From positions 256,001 to 320,000 of the forward strand of contig CAVXGK010000001.1 of assembly GCA_963761305.1 (NCBI GenBank): DNA of 64,000 bases, read 5' to 3'. The DNA is from an uncultured Gemmatimonadaceae bacterium. GTDB lineage: Bacteria; Gemmatimonadota; Gemmatimonadetes; Gemmatimonadales; Gemmatimonadaceae. The notes under the pieces are model-generated. The model was not told the origin of the DNA. It did no database searches and saw nothing but the letters and a program-made list of their open reading frames with translations. Every line of letters begins with the position of its first letter. Within the stretch, counting starts at the first letter, position 1. Of this stretch, positions 4,717 to 25,397 are shown in pieces. Made by a program: the position numbers and the translations under genes.

Positions 4717-7700
4717 CTAGGCCTTCGGCCGTTCCGGACCGAGCACCCGGACGATCGCCGCTTCCGCCGCATCCAACGCTTTGCGGAGCACCTGGAGGCG
4801 CTCCACGGCGTCGCGGCCAACGCGTTGGTCGACGCGCGCCGTCATGCCGGCGAGATAGGCGATCTGCGTCTGGAGGCCGGGACGGCCGTACCGAACGCCC
4901 TCGTCGGGGCCGAAGAGCGTCGTCGCCAGCGAATCCACCTTCGCCAGCGAGTCAGCGCTGCCGCCGGTGCGCAGTCGGGTGCGCGCCTGCCGCACGCGAT
5001 TGGCCGCGCGGCCGACCTCGGCCGCCATCTCCCGCGCGCGTACGTTGTGCTCGTACTGCTCGCGGAGGTCGGCCGTCGTCACGTGATCGGCCACGAGGCG
5101 CGGGTCGGGCAGGAGCGCGAGCGGCTCCGTGTGACTCCACGACCCCGCGCTCATTTTCACGTGATAGGATCCCGGCGGGAGCATCAGGCCGCCGCCGTCG
5201 TTGAAATCCCACACGAGCCGGTTCATTCCCGCGTTGGCCGTTAGGCGAACGGACGGCGCGGCGCGGCGGAATCCTCCGCCCTCTTCGTCGTCCGGTGCGG
5301 GAGCGGGTGCGTCGGCCGACGCCACGGTGATCGTCGCTTCGCTCGAGTAGTGTCGGACTTCGCGATTCGCCGAATCCAGAATCGCGATCGTCACCGGGCC
5401 GGCCTGCGGCCGTGCGAGGTAATAGTCGATGAACGCACCATTGGGCCCGAACTGCGCCTGGCCCGACGCCGGCGCGGCGCCGCCTCCGCCGCCTCCGCCG
5501 CCTCCGCCGCCTCCGCCTCCGCCGAATCCTCGGCCGCCGCCGATGCGCGCACGCACGGCGTCGCGGGGCTTGAACAAGACCGCGGCGGTCGTCGCGGTCT
5601 GCGCGTTCACCTGCCGCAGCGCCGAGATGTCGTCGAGGATCCACATCGAGCGGCCCTGCGTGGCGAGAATCAGGTCGTCGTGGTGGACCTTGATGTCGGT
5701 AATCGGCACGTTCGGCACGTTCAGCTCGAACGGCAGCCAATGCGCGCCGTCGTCGTACGAGATGAAGAGGCCGAACTCGGTCCCGGCGTAGAGCAGATGC
5801 TCGCGCACCGGGTCTTCGCGCACGACGCGGGTCGGCCAATCGGCGGGAATGCCGTTCTTGCCGTCGGTGAGACGCGTCCAGGTCGCGCCGTAGTTTTCGG
5901 TCTTATAAATATACGGCTCGAAATCCCCGAGCAGATAGCGATAGACCGCGTAGTAGGCCGAGCCTTTGCGGTGCGGCGACGTCTCGATGTACTGGACGCG
6001 GCCGCCCGGCGGGAGATCCTTCGGCGTGACGTTCGTCCACGTCTTGCCGTTGTCGCGCGAGATGTAGAACGGCCCGTCGTTCGACCCGGTCCAGATGACG
6101 CCGGGCTCCGTCTTCGACTCGCTGATCGCGTAGATCGTGCTGTAGAACTCCTCGCCGGTGACGTCGCGCGTGATCGGCTCGCCGCTTCCGCCCTGGCAGC
6201 AGGCGGGATGCGCGGTGAGATCGGGCGAGATCTTTTCCCAGTGGACGCCGCCGTCTCGGGACCGGTGCACGAACTGCGAGCCGTAGTACACGACGCTCGA
6301 GTCCCACGGCGACGTCTCCATCGGCGAGACACGCTGAAAGCGGAAGATGAGATCCTTCGCGTCGTTGCCGTACAGCGACTGCGCGCCGACCCAGTAGCTC
6401 TGCTCCTGACGCGTGTTCATGAACATGCGACCGAACTGTCCCTTGCACGCGCCGTAGACGATCTCCGGATTCTTTGGGTGCGGCATGATCGGCCCCGTCT
6501 CGCAACCGGGCCCCGTCGCGAACGGCTCGGTATTTCCCGCGACGGGGTTGCTCGGGACGATCACGGTGTTCGCATCCTGCTGCGCGCCGTAGAGGCGATA
6601 GGGCGTCTGGTCGTCGAGCCACACGCCGTAGATCTCCGCCGTCGGCTGATTCATCTGCGTCGACCACGTGCGGCCGCCGTCCTGCGACACGTTCGCGCCG
6701 CCGTCGTTCGACTGGATCATGATTTTCCCGTCGTGCGGGTTGATCCACATATCATGATTGTCGCCGTGCGGCGTGCGGAGCGTCGCCCACGTGGCGCCGC
6801 CGTCGGTGGACTTGTAGAAGTTCTCGGCGCCCGCGTAGACGACGTCGGCGTTCGTCGGATCGACGGCAAGCGCGACGTAGTAGAAGGGACGCGTGATGAG
6901 CTGCCCGTAATTGCTCACCTGCTTCCACGACGCGCCCGCGTCCTCCGAGCGATAGAGTCCGCCGCCGGGCTTCCCCTCGACGAGCGCGTAGACGCGATTC
7001 GGGTTCGCGGCGCTGACGGCGAGGTTCGCCTTGCCGACGAGTTCCGTCGGCAGGCCGTTCGTGATCTTGGTGAAATGCTCGCCGCCGTCGGTGCTCTTGT
7101 AGAATCCGACGCCCGCCGAATTCTGCGCGCCGCTGATGATCGTCCACGGTCTGCGTTCGCCGCGCCACATCCACGCGTAGACGACGTCCGGGTTCGTTGG
7201 ATTCAGCTCGACGACCGCCGCGCCGACGCTGTCCGAAACGAACAGCACCTTGCGCCACGTCTTGCCGCCGTCGCTGCTCTTGAAGACCCCGCGCTCCGAG
7301 TTCGGCTTGAACGCGTTGCCGATCGCCGCGACCCACACGACGTTGGGGTTCGTCGGGTGAATGCGCACGGCGCCGATCTGTCCCGCGTCGTAGAGCCCGG
7401 CGAACGTCCACGTCGCGCCGCCGTCGGTCGACTTGTACACGCCGCGCCCCGTCGACACGTTGCTGCGAATGTCGTCCGAGCCCGTGCCGAGATAGATCGT
7501 ATTCGGATCCGACTCGGCGACGGCGATCGAACCGGTCGACGCGACGGGAACCTTGCCGTCGGTGATCGGCACCCACGACGCACCAGCGTCGGTCGTGCGA
7601 AACACGCCGCCGCTCGCCACACCCATGTAGAACGTGCGCGGCTGCGACGGCACTCCGGTCACCGTGGTGACTCGCCCGCCGCGCGGCGGGCCCACCATCC

Positions 7701-18110: not shown

Positions 18111-20531
18111 ATGCAATCGCTGCTTCGCGACGTTCGCTACGGCCTTCGATCCCTATTGAAGGCGCCTGGTCTCACGGCCGTCGCGGTTCTCGCGCTGACG
18201 CTCGGGATCGGACTCACGACGACGATGTTCAGCATCGTGTACGGGGCGCTCCTCAAAGGGCTGCCCTTTCCCGACAGCGACCGCATCGTGGCCGTCTTCC
18301 GCTCCAATCCGTCGCGCAACATTCAGCAGTCGTCGATCTCCATCCTCGACTATTTCGACTACAGCGCGCAGCAGAAGTCCTTCGCCGAGCTGGCGGGGTT
18401 CACGTCGGGGACGATCTTCGTGAGCGGCGACGAGAAAGCCGAGCGATTCGACGGCTCGTGGATCACGGCGAACGCGCTGTCGATGCTCGGCGTGAAGCCC
18501 ATCCTCGGCCGGAACTTCACCCCGGGCGAGGACACGCCGCAGGGCGCCAAGGTCGCGATTCTATCATATACGATGTGGCACGACCGGTACGCGTCGGACG
18601 CGAACATCGTCGGCCGCGTGATCCGCGTGAACGGCGTGCCGACGGCGGTCGTCGGCGTGATGCCGGAGCGTTTCGAGTTTCCTCAGAACGACAAGATCTG
18701 GCTGCCGCTCCAGACGGATCCCAGCGCGACGAAGCGCGCCGACAGCCCGCAGATTCAAGTCGTGGGCAAGCTCAAGCCCGGCGCGTCATTCGACCAGGCG
18801 AACGTCGAGCTGGCGACGATCGCCAAGCGGCTGGCCGCCGCGTATCCCGACGCCGACGAAGGATTCACCACCAACGCGCGTCCCTTCGTCGACACGTACA
18901 TCGGCCCGCAGCCGCGGCAACTCCTGTTCACGATGCTCGGCGCTGTGTTCTTCGTGCTGCTCATCGCCTGCGCCAACGTCGCCAACCTGCTGCTCGATCG
19001 CGCGGCGCATCGCACCAAGGAAGTCGGCGTCCGCGTCGCGCTCGGCGCATCGCGCGGAGCCGTGGTGCGACAATTCCTGGCCGAGTCGCTGGTGTTGTCG
19101 CTGGCGGCGACGGTGCTCGGGATCGTGGTGGCGCATTTTGGGGTGGAGGCGTTCAACCGCGCGCTCGCGATCACACAGGTCCCGTTCTTCATCGACATTC
19201 GGCTGCATCCGCAGGTGCTGTTGTTCACGATCGCCGTCGCCGGCGTCACGACGCTCGTCGCCGGGGCGATCCCGGCGTATCAGTCGTCGCGCGCCGACAT
19301 CAACGAGATTCTCAAGGACGACTCGCGCGGCGCGTCGAGCTTCCGCATCGGCCGCATCACCAAGGGGCTCGTGATCTTCGAGATCGCCCTCTCGTGCGGG
19401 CTGCTCGTGGCGGCGGGCCTCATGATCAAGAGCGTCGCGAAGCTGCGCAATCTCGACCCGGGCTTCACGACGAAAGACGTGTTCACGGCGCGCATCGGCT
19501 TCCCCGTCGCGTACACGGACACGATCGCCCAATGGCGCTTCTTCGACGACGCGCTCCTCAAGGTGAGCGGGATTCCCGGCGTCGTGTCGGCGTCGGTCAG
19601 CTCGGGCATCCCCGCCACGCGCCAAGGGTTCGGCAGCAACACCTTCGGCGTCGAAGGCCAGAGCTATCTCAAGGACAAGGACTACCCGAACGCGCGCTGG
19701 CTCTCGGTGACGCCGGATTTCTTCACCACGCTCAAGACGCCGGTGGTGAACGGACGCGCGTTCACGCTCGGCGACCGTGCCGGCGAGCTGCCGGTGGCGA
19801 TCGTCAATCGCGAATTCGTCGCCAAATTCCTCGAGCACCAGAATCCGATCGGCAAGCGCATTCGGATTGGTGACTCGCGGAGCAAGCAGCCGTACCTCAC
19901 GATCGTCGGGGTCGTCGGCGACATGTTCTCGGGTGACAACGAGCACCCGATCGTGCCGGCGATCTTCCAGCCGTTCGCGCAGTCACGCGTCAACTTCGCG
20001 TGGATCTCGGCGCGCACCTCGGGTCCGCCGACGTCGATCACCGCGTCGGTGCGTCAGGCCGTGTCGTCGGTGAACGCCGACATCCCCCTCTACTGGGTGG
20101 ACTCGCTCGACAACCAGATCGCGCAGCAGACATGGTTCGTGCGCGTGTTCGGCACGATGTTCATGATCTTCGGCTTCGTCGCGCTGTTCCTGGCGTCGGT
20201 CGGGCTGTACGCGGTGATGTCGTTCTCGGTGAGCCGGCGCATCCGCGAAGTCGGGATTCGCATGGCGCTCGGCGCGCGCGCGGCCGACGTCGTCCGCATG
20301 ATCTTTGGCCAGGGGCTCGTCCAGCTCGGCGTCGGCATGACGCTCGGTCTGCTGCTGGCGGCCGGCATCGGTCAGACGCTCAAGATCATCCTCTTCCAGG
20401 TTCAGCCGCGCGATCCGACGATCTTCGTCGGCGTGGTGGTCGTCCTGACGCTGGTAGGTCTGGTCGCCTGCCTGGTTCCAGCGCGTCGAGCGACGCGGGT
20501 GGACCCGCTCGTGGCGCTGCGGGCCCAGTGA
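18111..20531 (+). CDS. ABC transporter permease (duplicated MacB-PCD/FtsX, ADOP type)
   Basis: 'DVRYGLRSL', 'LLIACANVANLL', 'RIREVGIRMALGA', 'PARRATRVDPLVALR'. Confidence 0.92.
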   Translation: MQSLLRDVRYGLRSLLKAPGLTAVAVLALTLGIGLTTTMFSIVYGALLKGLPFPDSDRIVAVFRSNPSRNIQQSSISILDYFDYSAQQKSFAELAGFTSGTIFVSGDEKAERFDGSWITANALSMLGVKPILGRNFTPGEDTPQGAKVAILSYTMWHDRYASDANIVGRVIRVNGVPTAVVGVMPERFEFPQNDKIWLPLQTDPSATKRADSPQIQVVGKLKPGASFDQANVELATIAKRLAAAYPDADEGFTTNARPFVDTYIGPQPRQLLFTMLGAVFFVLLIACANVANLLLDRAAHRTKEVGVRVALGASRGAVVRQFLAESLVLSLAATVLGIVVAHFGVEAFNRALAITQVPFFIDIRLHPQVLLFTIAVAGVTTLVAGAIPAYQSSRADINEILKDDSRGASSFRIGRITKGLVIFEIALSCGLLVAAGLMIKSVAKLRNLDPGFTTKDVFTARIGFPVAYTDTIAQWRFFDDALLKVSGIPGVVSASVSSGIPATRQGFGSNTFGVEGQSYLKDKDYPNARWLSVTPDFFTTLKTPVVNGRAFTLGDRAGELPVAIVNREFVAKFLEHQNPIGKRIRIGDSRSKQPYLTIVGVVGDMFSGDNEHPIVPAIFQPFAQSRVNFAWISARTSGPPTSITASVRQAVSSVNADIPLYWVDSLDNQIAQQTWFVRVFGTMFMIFGFVALFLASVGLYAVMSFSVSRRIREVGIRMALGARAADVVRMIFGQGLVQLGVGMTLGLLLAAGIGQTLKIILFQVQPRDPTIFVGVVVVLTLVGLVACLVPARRATRVDPLVALRAQ

Positions 20532-20548
20532 ACCCCGGTGAAGCGGCG

Positions 20549-20577
20549 TTGACGGTGCGTGTGACGGTATCTAGCTT
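20549..20577 (+). promoter_or_regulatory. Sigma70-type promoter
   Basis: TTGACG (20549-54), 17-bp spacer, TAGCTT (20572-77); predicted +1 at or next to the A of ATG 20585. Confidence 0.7.
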
Positions 20578-20584
20578 GCTTCCC

Positions 20585-20650
20585 ATGACGAACTGCGTGC
20601 TCAACCGAAATTGCGGGAATAATCGGAGCTCCTCGCGGAAAGCTGGCTAG
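20585..20650 (+). CDS. Putative leaderless Asn-rich leader peptide MTNCVLNRNCGNNRSSSRKAG
   Basis: 5 of 21 codons are Asn (AAC, AAC, AAT, AAT, AAT); lies at the predicted TSS, upstream of a terminator and tRNA-Asn. Confidence 0.65.
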   Translation: MTNCVLNRNCGNNRSSSRKAG

Positions 20651-20714
20651 GGCGCACTCGGCAGTTTGTCAGGGACGAGGCCCGCCAGAAGTCATACGGT
20701 GGGCCTTTTGTTTT
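20643..20714 (+). promoter_or_regulatory. Attenuator: antiterminator versus intrinsic terminator
   Basis: Terminator AGGCCCGCC (20678-86) / GGTGGGCCT (20698-706) plus TTTGTTTT; alternative pairing CTGGC-TA-GGGC (20643-53) with GCCC-GCCAG (20680-88). Confidence 0.65.
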
Positions 20715-20737
20715 GGCAGGTTGGTCGAGGGAAGCAT

Positions 20738-20810
20738 TGGGGCGTAGGTCAATTGGCAGACCGCCTGACTGTTAATCAGGAAGTTGGTGGTTCGAGTCCA
20801 CCCGCCCCAG
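20738..20810 (+). tRNA. tRNA-Asn (GTT)
   Basis: Cloverleaf: acceptor TGGGGCG/CGCCCCA with U1-A72, D-arm GGTC/GACC, anticodon stem CCTGA/TCAGG with loop CTGTTAA, T-arm GGTGG-TTCGAGT-CCACC, discriminator G; CCA not encoded. Confidence 0.97.
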
Positions 20811-20847: not shown

Positions 20848-20878
20848 AGCCCCGGCGCGCTTCAGCGCCGGGGCTTTG
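20848..20878 (+). terminator. Intrinsic terminator after tRNA
   Basis: AGCCCCGGCGC / GCGCCGGGGCT perfect 11-bp stem plus TTG. Confidence 0.75.
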
Positions 20879-21134
20879 TCGTTGAATCCCGTTGCGGAGG
20901 TCAGCCTCGATGAAGCCACCTCGAGTGCGTGTTACCCAACGCGTAACAATTGTGAAGCAAACCACGAGTCGGTGCGATTCACCAGTAGAGGGGCTCGTCT
21001 CACCAATTCCCGCGCCCTGATTCAGCCGGTCAAATCGTCCACCTCAGACCGTTGCCGTTCTATCCAATCGCCGAAACGTCGAATCAATCATCCTGAACGT
21101 CGCATTCACACGCCGCACTGTGGAATCTCTCGCT

Positions 21135-21372
21135 CTTCCCACGCCATCTATGCGTGTTCCCGCGACACCAACCATTGCTCCGCTCGTACCTCGCACCTCG
21201 CCCCCGAGATCTCTCGCTGTTCCCGTCACGCCACACGTCGTTCCCGTGGCATTACACATCGTTCCCGCAGCATTACACATCGTTCCCGCCGCATTACCCG
21301 TCGTTCCCGTCGAAGCTCACGCCGCGGACATGGCGCCTCACCGCGTTCCCCTCGCTTCTCATGACGTTTCCA
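21135..21372. repeat. Degenerate 21-bp-period tandem repeat
   Basis: GTTCCC-like hexamer recurs at 21135, 21156, 21219, 21240, 21261, 21282, 21303, 21345 and 21366 (multiples of 21); core units such as GTTCCCGCAGCATTACACATC. Confidence 0.8.
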
Positions 21373-21629
21373 CGCCATCACAAGGAGATACCACACCATT
21401 TCCACATGATTCGCTCGCATTGCAGCTCGTGACGCTCGCTTCAACCAAGGCGAACGTCGCTGCAACAAGTCCGACGATCACCCCACGCGATGCGCCGCGC
21501 ATCGCTACGGACTCGAACGGGACTTCTCACCTTCGAACCCTCATTCCAACAGGTTTAGACGCGGCGTCAACAACACTTTTCCACGGGATCAACGCTGTTC
21601 ACCCATTCATTTCATTCCAAGGAGCACAT

Positions 21630-22421
21630 TTGAAAAACACGCAGGAGCAGGTTTACAACACGGGTCGTCGCGTCCAGGCTTTCCTCGACGCCAACGACTC
21701 GCTCTTCGGTAGCATCAACAAATCCAGCATACGGTCTGAGCTCGACACCGTCGTGACCGAGCTGGGTGCCGCCGCCGGCGATCAGGCCGGCGGGTTGGTC
21801 AACGCGCGTGGCGAGACGGCCAAACAACGGACTCTTCGTCTCGCGCTGCGGCTCAACCACATGCAGCCAATCGCTTCCGTCGCCAAGCTCAAGTTGCGGA
21901 CCGTCCCCAACTTCGAGTCTCTGACGATGCCTAGCGTCAACGTCCGCGTCGCCGGTTTGATCGCGCACGCGCTGGGTATGGCCGACGCTGCGCAGCCCTA
22001 TGTACAGGTATTCATCGACGCTGGTCTGCCGTCGGACTTCATGACGGCGCTGACCGCCGCGGCGGCGGCCGTCCAAGCGTCCGTCGACACCCGCGCAAAG
22101 TCACTCGGCAAAAGGGCCAACGCCACCGGTTCGCTCAAGGAGCTCGATCGCCGAGCGCGAACGGTCTACAAAGCGCTCAACGACTTCGTCGTCCCGATTC
22201 TCTCGGCCGACGTCGCGCACAGCGGATTGCTGGCCGAGTGGAAGACGACGCGCCGCGTCACGCTGCGCCCGGGCCCGACGATCGGAGTTGAACAGCTGGT
22301 GCGGGCGCTCGGTGGGGTGCCCATGCCATCGACATCCACATCGCCGACCACGCGGTCAGCGCCGGCTGTCGTTCCGCCGCCGGTTGCTCACCCGGTCGCG
22401 CCCCAGCTGACGACGCCGTAG
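21630..22421 (+). CDS. Hypothetical alpha-helical protein with Pro-rich tail
   Basis: AGGAG RBS then TTG at 21630; normal codon usage from here on; upstream part of ORF 21120 is repeat-derived. Confidence 0.7.
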   Translation: MKNTQEQVYNTGRRVQAFLDANDSLFGSINKSSIRSELDTVVTELGAAAGDQAGGLVNARGETAKQRTLRLALRLNHMQPIASVAKLKLRTVPNFESLTMPSVNVRVAGLIAHALGMADAAQPYVQVFIDAGLPSDFMTALTAAAAAVQASVDTRAKSLGKRANATGSLKELDRRARTVYKALNDFVVPILSADVAHSGLLAEWKTTRRVTLRPGPTIGVEQLVRALGGVPMPSTSTSPTTRSAPAVVPPPVAHPVAPQLTTP

Positions 22422-22444: not shown

Positions 22445-22486
22445 TTCCGTGCGAGCGGTACGCGCGCTACCGCTCGCACGACGGAA
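22445..22486. terminator. Long perfect hairpin after the 21630-22421 gene
   Basis: CGTGCGAGCGGTA (22448-60) / TACCGCTCGCACG (22468-80). Confidence 0.55.
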
Positions 22487-22489
22487 GGA

Positions 22490-22532
22490 CCAGCAGTCGT
22501 ACGGTGGGCCTTTTGTTTAGGTCGGTTGTTCG
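22490..22532 (+). repeat. Degenerate copy of the tRNA-Asn upstream/attenuator segment 20685-20727
   Basis: 37 of 43 positions identical by manual alignment. Confidence 0.8.
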
Positions 22533-22607
22533 GAGCGGCAACATCGGTCGGCCAGAGACTCTCTGTCGGCCCTTCTTGTCCTTTGCGCAGACTACATAAA
22601 GTGTGAT

Positions 22608-23084
22608 ATGTTCTCGATCATGCGAACCCTGTCGCCGCTCTTCGTCCTGGCCGGTCTCGCCGGCTGCGGGCAGCACGGTGCCTCGGCCCCCACTCCCCAA
22701 GCGTCGCGAGTGGGGATCTATCACTTCACCGAGCATCCTCTTCAATCGAACCAGTCGTTTGAGGGCCGCGTCGGCGTGACGAAGGACACGATTGTCATTG
22801 AATCCGACTTGGCTCCTTGCATCTACGATTCGCGAAGCGCCGCCGGCTCCGCGGTCATCTATCAATGTGGACCGGTGACCGTGTCGTTCAGGCGATCAGA
22901 CCCTATCGCTACCGCCAGGTACACCGTCACTACGACGGTCGTGGACCACCAGATGACGTGCGTGCGATACACGACCGATGCGTCGGGACACCAGACCTGC
23001 GCCCAGCAGCGGAGCGAAGCGATCGAGCGACAGGTTCCAGTGTCGGGAACGTTGCATCTCGAGCTCACGGTCAAGCCCGACTGA
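22608..23084 (+). CDS. Hypothetical Cys-containing lipoprotein (paralog 1)
   Basis: Lipobox 'LAGC'; 4 further Cys; clearly homologous to 24927-25397. Confidence 0.8.
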   Translation: MFSIMRTLSPLFVLAGLAGCGQHGASAPTPQASRVGIYHFTEHPLQSNQSFEGRVGVTKDTIVIESDLAPCIYDSRSAAGSAVIYQCGPVTVSFRRSDPIATARYTVTTTVVDHQMTCVRYTTDASGHQTCAQQRSEAIERQVPVSGTLHLELTVKPD

Positions 23085-24856: not shown

Positions 24857-24880
24857 TGGCGATCACGTGGGAGTCCCGGA

Positions 24881-24928
24881 GACTCTGACCGTTAGGCGGT
24901 GCTGGTTCGAGTCCACCCATTCCAGTAT
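24881..24928 (+). pseudogene. Degenerate 3' fragment of tRNA-Asn (att-like direct repeat)
   Basis: TGGTTCGAGTCCACCC-att-CCAGTAT (24903-28) versus tRNA 20788-20813, 23 of 26 identical; preceded by CTGACCGTTA versus tRNA CTGACTGTTA. Confidence 0.75.
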
Positions 24929-25397
24929 GTTCTCGGCCATGCGAACCCTGCTGTCGCTGGTCTCGCTGGCCGGTCTCGCTGCGTGCGCACACCGTGGCGC
25001 GCCGGATCCCGCTCCCCAGACGTCGCGGGTAGGGATCTATCGCTTCACCGAGCATCCACCACAATCGAAACAGCCGTTTCAGGGCCGCGTTGGCGTGACG
25101 AACGACACAGTGGTCGTTGAAACCGAATCGGGTCCGTGCCTGTACGATCCCCACAGCCCCGCCGGTACCACGGTCATTTATCATTGCGGCGACATCACCG
25201 TGTCGTTCAACCGAACCAACCCCGTCCTCACTGCCAGGTACACCGTCAATACAACGGTGACTGACCAGCAGGCGACGTGCGCGCGACGCACGAGCGATTC
25301 ACGACAGACGTGCATCCAGCAGCGGAACGATCCGATCGAGCGGCAGGTTCCGGTCACGGGAACGCTTCACCTCGAGCTCGTCATAAAGCCGGACTGA
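24927..25397 (+). CDS. Hypothetical Cys-containing lipoprotein (paralog 2)
   Basis: Lipobox 'LAAC'; same 4 Cys; shared ends 'MFS.MRTL' and 'GTLHLEL..KPD'. Confidence 0.8.
   Translation: MFSAMRTLLSLVSLAGLAACAHRGAPDPAPQTSRVGIYRFTEHPPQSKQPFQGRVGVTNDTVVVETESGPCLYDPHSPAGTTVIYHCGDITVSFNRTNPVLTARYTVNTTVTDQQATCARRTSDSRQTCIQQRNDPIERQVPVTGTLHLELVIKPD

Follow-up and report, generated by a model that had tools for sequence, protein, structure and literature searches.

The window, a stretch of 64,000 nucleotides of contig CAVXGK010000001.1 (assembly GCA_963761305.1) from an uncultured Gemmatimonadaceae bacterium, contains a tRNA-Asn gene preceded by a short Asn-rich open reading frame (ORF) and by RNA segments that can pair in alternative ways. 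The source genome is labelled G000; other genomes, loci and families are designated G###, L### and f##. The tRNA-Asn of the attenuated kind is called type A and the ordinary tRNA-Asn type B, the types being defined by their first bases. The element and its neighbours are the following, in window coordinates:

18111..20531, plus strand: ADOP-family duplicated permease gene (NCBIfam TIGR03434, over cut-off), a neighbour outside the element
20549..20577, plus strand: putative sigma-70-type promoter, −35 TTGACG and −10 TAGCTT, with conserved −35- and −10-like words
20585..20650, plus strand: leaderless leader-peptide ORF, 21 codons, stop TAG (conservation, AAY frame bias, few Shine-Dalgarno-like words)
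20586..20671, plus strand: protector (anti-antiterminator) helix, 20586-20602 with 20650-20671 (minimum free energy and centroid folds; cognate pairing favoured)
20643..20688, plus strand: antiterminator helix, 20643-53 with 20680-88 (covariation, swapped-partner permutation)
20677..20714, plus strand: attenuator intrinsic terminator (fold, covariation)
20738..20810, plus strand: type A tRNA-Asn(GTT), with U1-A72, G2-C71 to G5-C68, A15:U48 and G73; CCA not encoded
20848..20880, plus strand: strong terminator-like hairpin past the tRNA, which makes the unit monocistronic in the source genome

The promoter reported in the preliminary description is present, with TTGACG at 20549-54, a 17-nt spacer and TAGCTT at 20572-77, the ATG at 20585 standing seven nt past the −10 hexamer. 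It matches 8 of 12 consensus positions and was not called by a consensus scanner. The ORF has Asn at codons 3, 7, 9, 12 and 13 (20591, 20603, 20609, 20618 and 20621). With Asn at 2.6% of the long-ORF codons of the source genome, the probability of at least five Asn in 20 codons is 1.3e-4, in agreement with the excess over background that had been described. The terminator announced between the ORF and the tRNA is a GC hairpin with its stem at 20677-20707, followed by a U-tract to 20714; a generic scanner missed it because its loop is 11 nt long. The core pairing of the protector helix is 20586-96:20661-71. The next gene is tRNA-Asn(GTT), as had been stated. Upstream of the element, a similar gene end is found in many relatives and unrelated DNA in others.

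Single-sequence folding gave modest z-scores (−1.78 and −1.88, and +0.20 for the antiterminator segment). Throughout G000, a terminator follows 3 of 19 short ORFs that are leaderless and preceded by a promoter, and all three have a composition biased towards one or two residues; among 16 Asn-rich short ORFs, only the leader of the window is followed by a terminator. Of 24 RNA runs, each containing at most 0.13 of the words, four gave contigs that span the tRNA and the permease end and skip 20547-20735, which tells nothing either way. The case for an attenuator stands on conservation and not on the single sequence.

Further along the window, a degenerate copy of the attenuator loop, 3' arm, U-tract and next bases (20685-20737) lies at 22486-22535, 1.8 kb downstream. 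A 433-aa ORF without NCBIfam match (21120-22421) sits between the attenuator and this copy. Two alike small lipoprotein-like genes are found on the minus strand at 22608-23084 and 24867-25397, about 2.3 kb apart, and related sequence is present 3' of the tRNA in L002 and L004.

The type A tRNA pattern occurs on at least 120 GTDB contigs, and among the matches listed Gemmatimonadota appears in 75 of 80 titles. A leader test was applied, which asks for an ORF of 12-45 codons with at least three Asn and a terminator 5-60 nt past the stop; the set omits L225, from an unpublished genome. The test was passed by 59 of 200 type A loci versus 0 of 62 type B loci, so that the Asn-rich upstream ORF proposed for relatives is conserved. 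The proportion was 24/30 for the top-ranking loci of 61 related genomes, a set selected for similarity to the query and including the window's own, and 26/120 for loci chosen by the tRNA pattern alone among the matches listed. Evident leaders are overlooked by the test at L234, L241, L257, L133 and L045, and leaders have apparently decayed or been deleted at L016, L062, L253, L030, L017 and L029. As about two thirds of the type A loci have no leader, and apparent deletions occur in close kin, the control is dispensable. In L030 (G018), L017 (G034) and L029 (G023), the leader is deleted and the promoter and part of the hairpin remain before the tRNA; these are apparently independent switches to unattenuated expression. 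A tie between the loss of the leader and the loss of type B was ruled out, as G018, G023 and G034 lack the leader yet keep type B.

The coding signature was examined in 63 leaders with at least two Asn. Asn makes up 23.7% of their codons versus 2.6% in the genome, and AAY triplets are distributed 320:4:6 over the three frames. Since the ORFs had been picked for Asn, the leaders were shuffled as a control, and the best frame then had 1.3 AAY per ORF versus about 5 observed. The rarer codon AAT is used 206 times versus 114 on the AAC side. The Asn codons cluster at positions −16 to −7 relative to the stop. Leader length varies by whole codons, and the position of the stop is kept while TAG (54 leaders), TGA (6) and TAA (3) interchange; the distance from stop to terminator is 20-32 nt in 61 of the 63. 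Asn content is also kept in leaders of unrelated sequence or from other families (L055, L124, L157, L159 and L160). From one family to another, only the Asn of the peptide is conserved. A −35-like word is found 34-38 nt upstream of the start in 48 of 63 leaders and a −10-like hexamer ends 6-9 nt upstream in 45 of the 47 scored. An SD-like word precedes only 4 of 62 leaders, in line with the absence of such a site reported for the window. This pattern fits leaderless translation, with transcription presumed to start at or next to the AUG.

The helices were aligned in 38 of the 62 leaders, which form the commonest sequence family. For the antiterminator, 82.5% of the cells are paired and 25 show two-sided changes, a level reached by 0/500 shuffles, slid controls giving 3-12 cells; the number of pairs with two-sided changes did not exceed that of shuffles (268 of 500). 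The corresponding values for the terminator are 90.4% and 33, again reached by 0/500 shuffles. Because shuffled and slid controls ignore kinship, partners were swapped among 26 sequence clusters, after removal of L255, whose terminator was misassigned. Cognate antiterminator duplexes had a mean energy of −16.6 kcal/mol versus −13.7 kcal/mol for swapped ones (0/20000 permutations), and in the protector helix cognate pairing was favoured over swapped partners with p 5e-5 (26 cluster representatives). Compensatory changes, which the preliminary description had suggested looking for, are present in both the antiterminator and the terminator. These two helices are mutually exclusive.

Folding was then modelled with the ribosome as a mask, under the assumption that the RNA behind the ribosome is masked too; an earlier proxy that left this RNA free gave a muted switch. 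Averaged over the loci, the terminator has a probability of 0.15-0.28 when the ribosome stands at codons −20 to −6, rising to 0.73-0.77 from −4 to the stop. A switch is predicted in 46 of 62 loci, with its boundary just 3' of the Asn codons, so in the model the Asn codons at −16 to −7 fall on the read-through side. A ribosome on the Asn codons would free the antiterminator strand, and a ribosome at the stop would mask it. For the window leader, the terminator probability is 0.24 with the ribosome at Asn13, 0.82 at Asn12, 0.77 at Asn9, 0.93 at the stop and 0.99 without ribosome. The model thus predicts read-through at Asn13, the last Asn codon, and not at Asn12 or Asn9. The protector helix had been proposed to cause termination when the leader is untranslated; its cognate pairing is favoured, and termination in the untranslated state was predicted in only 24 of 62 loci, the window among them.

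The element is conserved and is a real feature. Computation and sequence make it likely that a leaderless transcript here carries a ribosome-mediated transcription attenuator, with the tRNA as the controlled gene. When the Asn codons are read fast, the ribosome would reach the last codons and cover 20643-53, and the terminator would form. With Asn-tRNA in short supply, the ribosome would stall on the Asn codons, most of which lie 7-16 codons ahead of the stop; in that state 20643-53 is predicted to pair with the 5' arm of the terminator, and the polymerase would read into the tRNA. Conservation, frame bias, covariation and folding support this stalling mechanism, which had been put forward from the window sequence.

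Across loci, the one target that stays constant is the tRNA, which is a tRNA-Asn at all 59 loci because of how these were chosen. The genes past it are unrelated between loci save for three pairs of loci, which makes it very improbable that the attenuator targets downstream protein genes and that the tRNA is a passenger or an integration site. In favour of this idea, just 12 of 50 attenuated loci have a terminator-like hairpin 3' of the tRNA, and 25 of 39 have a same-strand ORF within 300 nt; in the window, however, a strong hairpin lies at 20848-75, and asnS and aspS of G000 are on another contig, where no such leader was found. An independent promoter past the terminator, with the short ORF as a separate small-protein gene, would be easiest to accommodate where the gap between terminator and tRNA is widest, up to 152 nt. 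The gap is at most 40 nt in 39 of 62 loci, though, and as short as 6 nt, a promoter-like match is found in it in 3 of 62, and a peptide conserved across families in nothing but Asn hardly suits a small protein; we give this alternative very little weight. It also seems very improbable that the ORF is incidental and that the leader acts as a non-coding RNA or as a switch that binds a ligand or tRNA. A long 5'-3' helix does close the leader, and AAY-rich stretches could be specifier-like. The restriction of AAY to one frame, the length changes by whole codons and the interchange of stop codons at a fixed place nevertheless speak for translation. The leader matches no Rfam family, either at the gathering cut-off or at E-values up to 10; a T-box riboswitch, with its stem I, specifier loop and T-box antiterminator bulge, was ruled out on the same grounds.

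No codon-matched leaderless upstream ORF was found at any other of the 51 tRNA genes of G000, so the analogous leaders that might have been expected before other tRNAs did not appear. The architecture of a leaderless leader plus terminator recurs twice in G000 at other genes. One case is a Tyr-rich leader (L355, G000:C1:600060, minus strand, about 5850-6070; 5 Tyr in 25 codons) before a DAHP synthase gene and a prephenate-dehydrogenase-like gene, which is likely a tyrosine attenuator. The other is a Cys/Met-rich leader (L356, G000:C2:2970837, minus strand, about 5590-5840; 27 codons, of which 6 are Cys and 5 Met) before a gene of 335 aa without NCBIfam match.

Elsewhere in G000, at C2:1616429, lies a second tRNA-Asn; it has a promoter-like site of its own and lacks an Asn leader. 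The preliminary description saw in the loop a means of tuning the cell's tRNA-Asn supply. The mechanism is supported; the purpose has to be revised in view of this second tRNA, so the earlier interpretation is partly supported. Every one of the 96 distinct type A sequences of 73 nt carries U1 G2 G3 G4 G5, C68-C71, A72 and G73, and 91 carry A15:U48, whereas all 20 type B sequences have U1 C2 C3 and G15:C48. The type A acceptor is that of the G000 tRNA-Asp at positions 2-7. Both types carry G34, U35, U36 and G73, and type B too has U1-A72. U1-A72 is described as an amidotransferase determinant and G2-C71 as a minor aspartate determinant for AspRS in the available text of PMC9976931 and PMC6523644; the former gives U1-A72 and the absence of D-loop base 20a as the GatCAB determinants of tRNA-Asn. 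Both of these GatCAB-substrate features are present in type A. Type-A-like tRNA-Asn bodies were also found in 76 of 91 hits on viral contigs, so this acceptor need not be an adaptation of Gemmatimonadota; none of 73 phage tRNA-Asn genes was preceded by a leader. Many of the IMG/VR loci L360-L450 have the UGGGG acceptor, and in several the anticodon is followed by A-C in place of A-A, that is, the Asp-type C38. A third form of tRNA-Asn, of 72 nt with a short D-loop, is found at L244 (G156), L259 (G150) and L281 (G033). A selenocysteine tRNA lies at G000:C2:942665 on the minus strand.

The gene set of G000 includes asnS, glnS, gatB and a single aspS; asnA is missing, and no AsnB match rises above the canonical cut-off. 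The available sections of PMC4206432 attribute the retention of GatCAB alongside such a set to tRNA-dependent Asn synthesis. A housekeeping AsnB was sought among seven Pfam matches, none of which reached the PRK09431 cut-off; of those that could be assigned, two belong to an NRPS/glycosyltransferase region, one is partial and nearby, one at C2:225 kb is just over TIGR01536, and MnmA was also recognized. One AsnB-like match could still make Asn. A second, archaeal-type AspRS was rejected, the five extra full-length matches to the asnS model all being LysRS. A frameshift seemingly splits gatA (G000:C2:961852-964776, L034), which continues into the frame of gatB; a sequencing error in the assembly may be the cause.

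Co-occurrence was tabulated for 106 genomes of the class, with the tRNA types read from the variable loop and the acceptor checked on the retrieved loci; left out of the table are G000, families f10-f12, the unpublished genomes G096 and G135, and G124, in which no tRNA-Asn turned up. Nothing concluded here depends on unpublished genomes. Type A was found in 59 of 84 gatB-positive versus 1 of 22 gatB-negative genomes, a contrast that Fisher p values overstate because the genomes are metagenome-assembled and mutually related. Among glnS holders, the proportions are 16/20 with gatB versus 0/17 without, and type A is absent from all ten holders of asnA or canonical asnB. The exceptional gatB-negative genome with type A (G055) has no glnS either, which points to a gap in its assembly. 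No type A was found in 25 of the 84 gatB-positive genomes. An AspRS tree of 31 sequences picked by hand, which is not an unbiased test, has genomes positive for type A and gatB beside genomes negative for both in five clades; this points to repeated joint loss of the two. Two AspRS columns weakly separate type A holders among these 31 sequences, neither convincingly. At the RD[L/H]GG motif, the AspRS of this class carries Leu, with His confined to family f10. Type A is thus a distinct isodecoder, whose presence tracks gatB and the absence of asparagine synthetase. Three near-complete genomes of family f6 in 1-3 contigs (G097, G120 and G138) had no glnS or gatB match at the thresholds used, and have no evident Gln-tRNA route.

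Given the attenuator, co-occurrence and the features of the tRNA make it on balance likely that type A serves as the scaffold for Asn synthesis by AspRS and GatCAB. Low Asn-tRNA would raise type A and thereby the flux through Asp-tRNA(Asn) and GatCAB; the feedback would be negative, as in trp and his, with a tRNA replacing the enzyme genes. Type A as a scaffold would then take the place of the biosynthetic gene in operons of the trp and his type, and the cells would probably raise Asn synthesis through more tRNA and not through more enzyme. More tentatively, it can be proposed that a dedicated biosynthetic tRNA-Asn with a tRNA-Asp-like acceptor lets a near-discriminating AspRS load Asp for GatCAB, and that attenuation of the tRNA keeps Asp-tRNA(Asn) low when Asn is plentiful. 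If true, a tRNA gene would be the regulated step of an amino-acid pathway.

Type A might instead be a plain reserve decoder charged by AsnRS, behind an attenuator that is just as real, the loop adding tRNA when AAY codons are read slowly. The presence of asnS in 120 of 121 genomes, the anticodon and discriminator bases common to both types and the preference of the leaders for AAT are compatible with this. We consider it rather unlikely, and slightly less so once the attenuator is granted. On the reserve-decoder reading, the absence of type A from 21 of 22 gatB-negative genomes and from all ten holders of asnA or asnB has no explanation, nor has the lack of matched leaders before the other tRNA genes of G000. 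Moreover, extra tRNA under amino-acid shortage would presumably help only if the tRNA were part of the supply route, as it would be as a scaffold for Asn synthesis.

Known leader-peptide attenuators control genes for enzymes, transporters and synthetases. The classical transcription attenuators are trpL, hisL, pheL and thrL of Escherichia coli, together with pheM before pheST. The element described here would work like the trp, his and phe attenuators and is not a T-box. It shares with the classical E. coli systems an ORF rich in one amino acid, an antiterminator and a terminator that exclude each other, a stop codon within the antiterminator strand and predicted read-through on stalling. It differs from them in that the target is a tRNA, that Asn is sensed and that there is no Shine-Dalgarno site. 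The classical attenuators are described in general terms in the available text of PMC1183508. In the full-text literature searched (PMC2494555 included, most subscription journals lying outside), the available text yielded no tRNA gene under a leader-peptide attenuator, with Asn as the sensed amino acid or otherwise, and no such attenuator in Gemmatimonadota. Leaderless short ORFs acting as polycysteine attenuators are reported from mycobacteria in the accessible part of bioRxiv 10.1101/834739. There too, as far as that part goes, the sensor ORF is leaderless, rich in one amino acid and in control of a downstream gene; the mycobacterial system, however, is translational and frees the ribosome-binding site of protein genes, whereas here a terminator would switch before a tRNA.

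For the asparagine route, the closest likeness is to Bdellovibrio, Legionella, Deinococcus and Thermus, which according to the available sections of PMC4206432 combine tRNA-dependent Asn synthesis with AsnRS, GlnRS and GatCAB. Like them, G000 has these enzymes, one AspRS, no housekeeping asparagine synthetase and a tRNA-Asn with U1-A72. The same sections attribute to these bacteria a relaxed or a second AspRS, whereas no archaeal-type second AspRS was found in G000, and they describe no dedicated or regulated tRNA-Asn isodecoder. They also ask what makes many bacteria retain two routes to Asn-tRNA, and how the work is shared between these. An attenuated second tRNA-Asn bears on this question, and can be tested with two tRNA transcripts and three enzymes. 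The element also indicates that leaderless transcription attenuators are in use in Gemmatimonadota, a little-studied soil phylum. Charging of Asn-tRNA reportedly controls the transamidation route in Clostridium acetobutylicum as well, where an Asn T-box is said to precede aspS-gatCAB. There, the T-box RNA senses and the enzymes are controlled; here, the ribosome would sense and the tRNA would be controlled.
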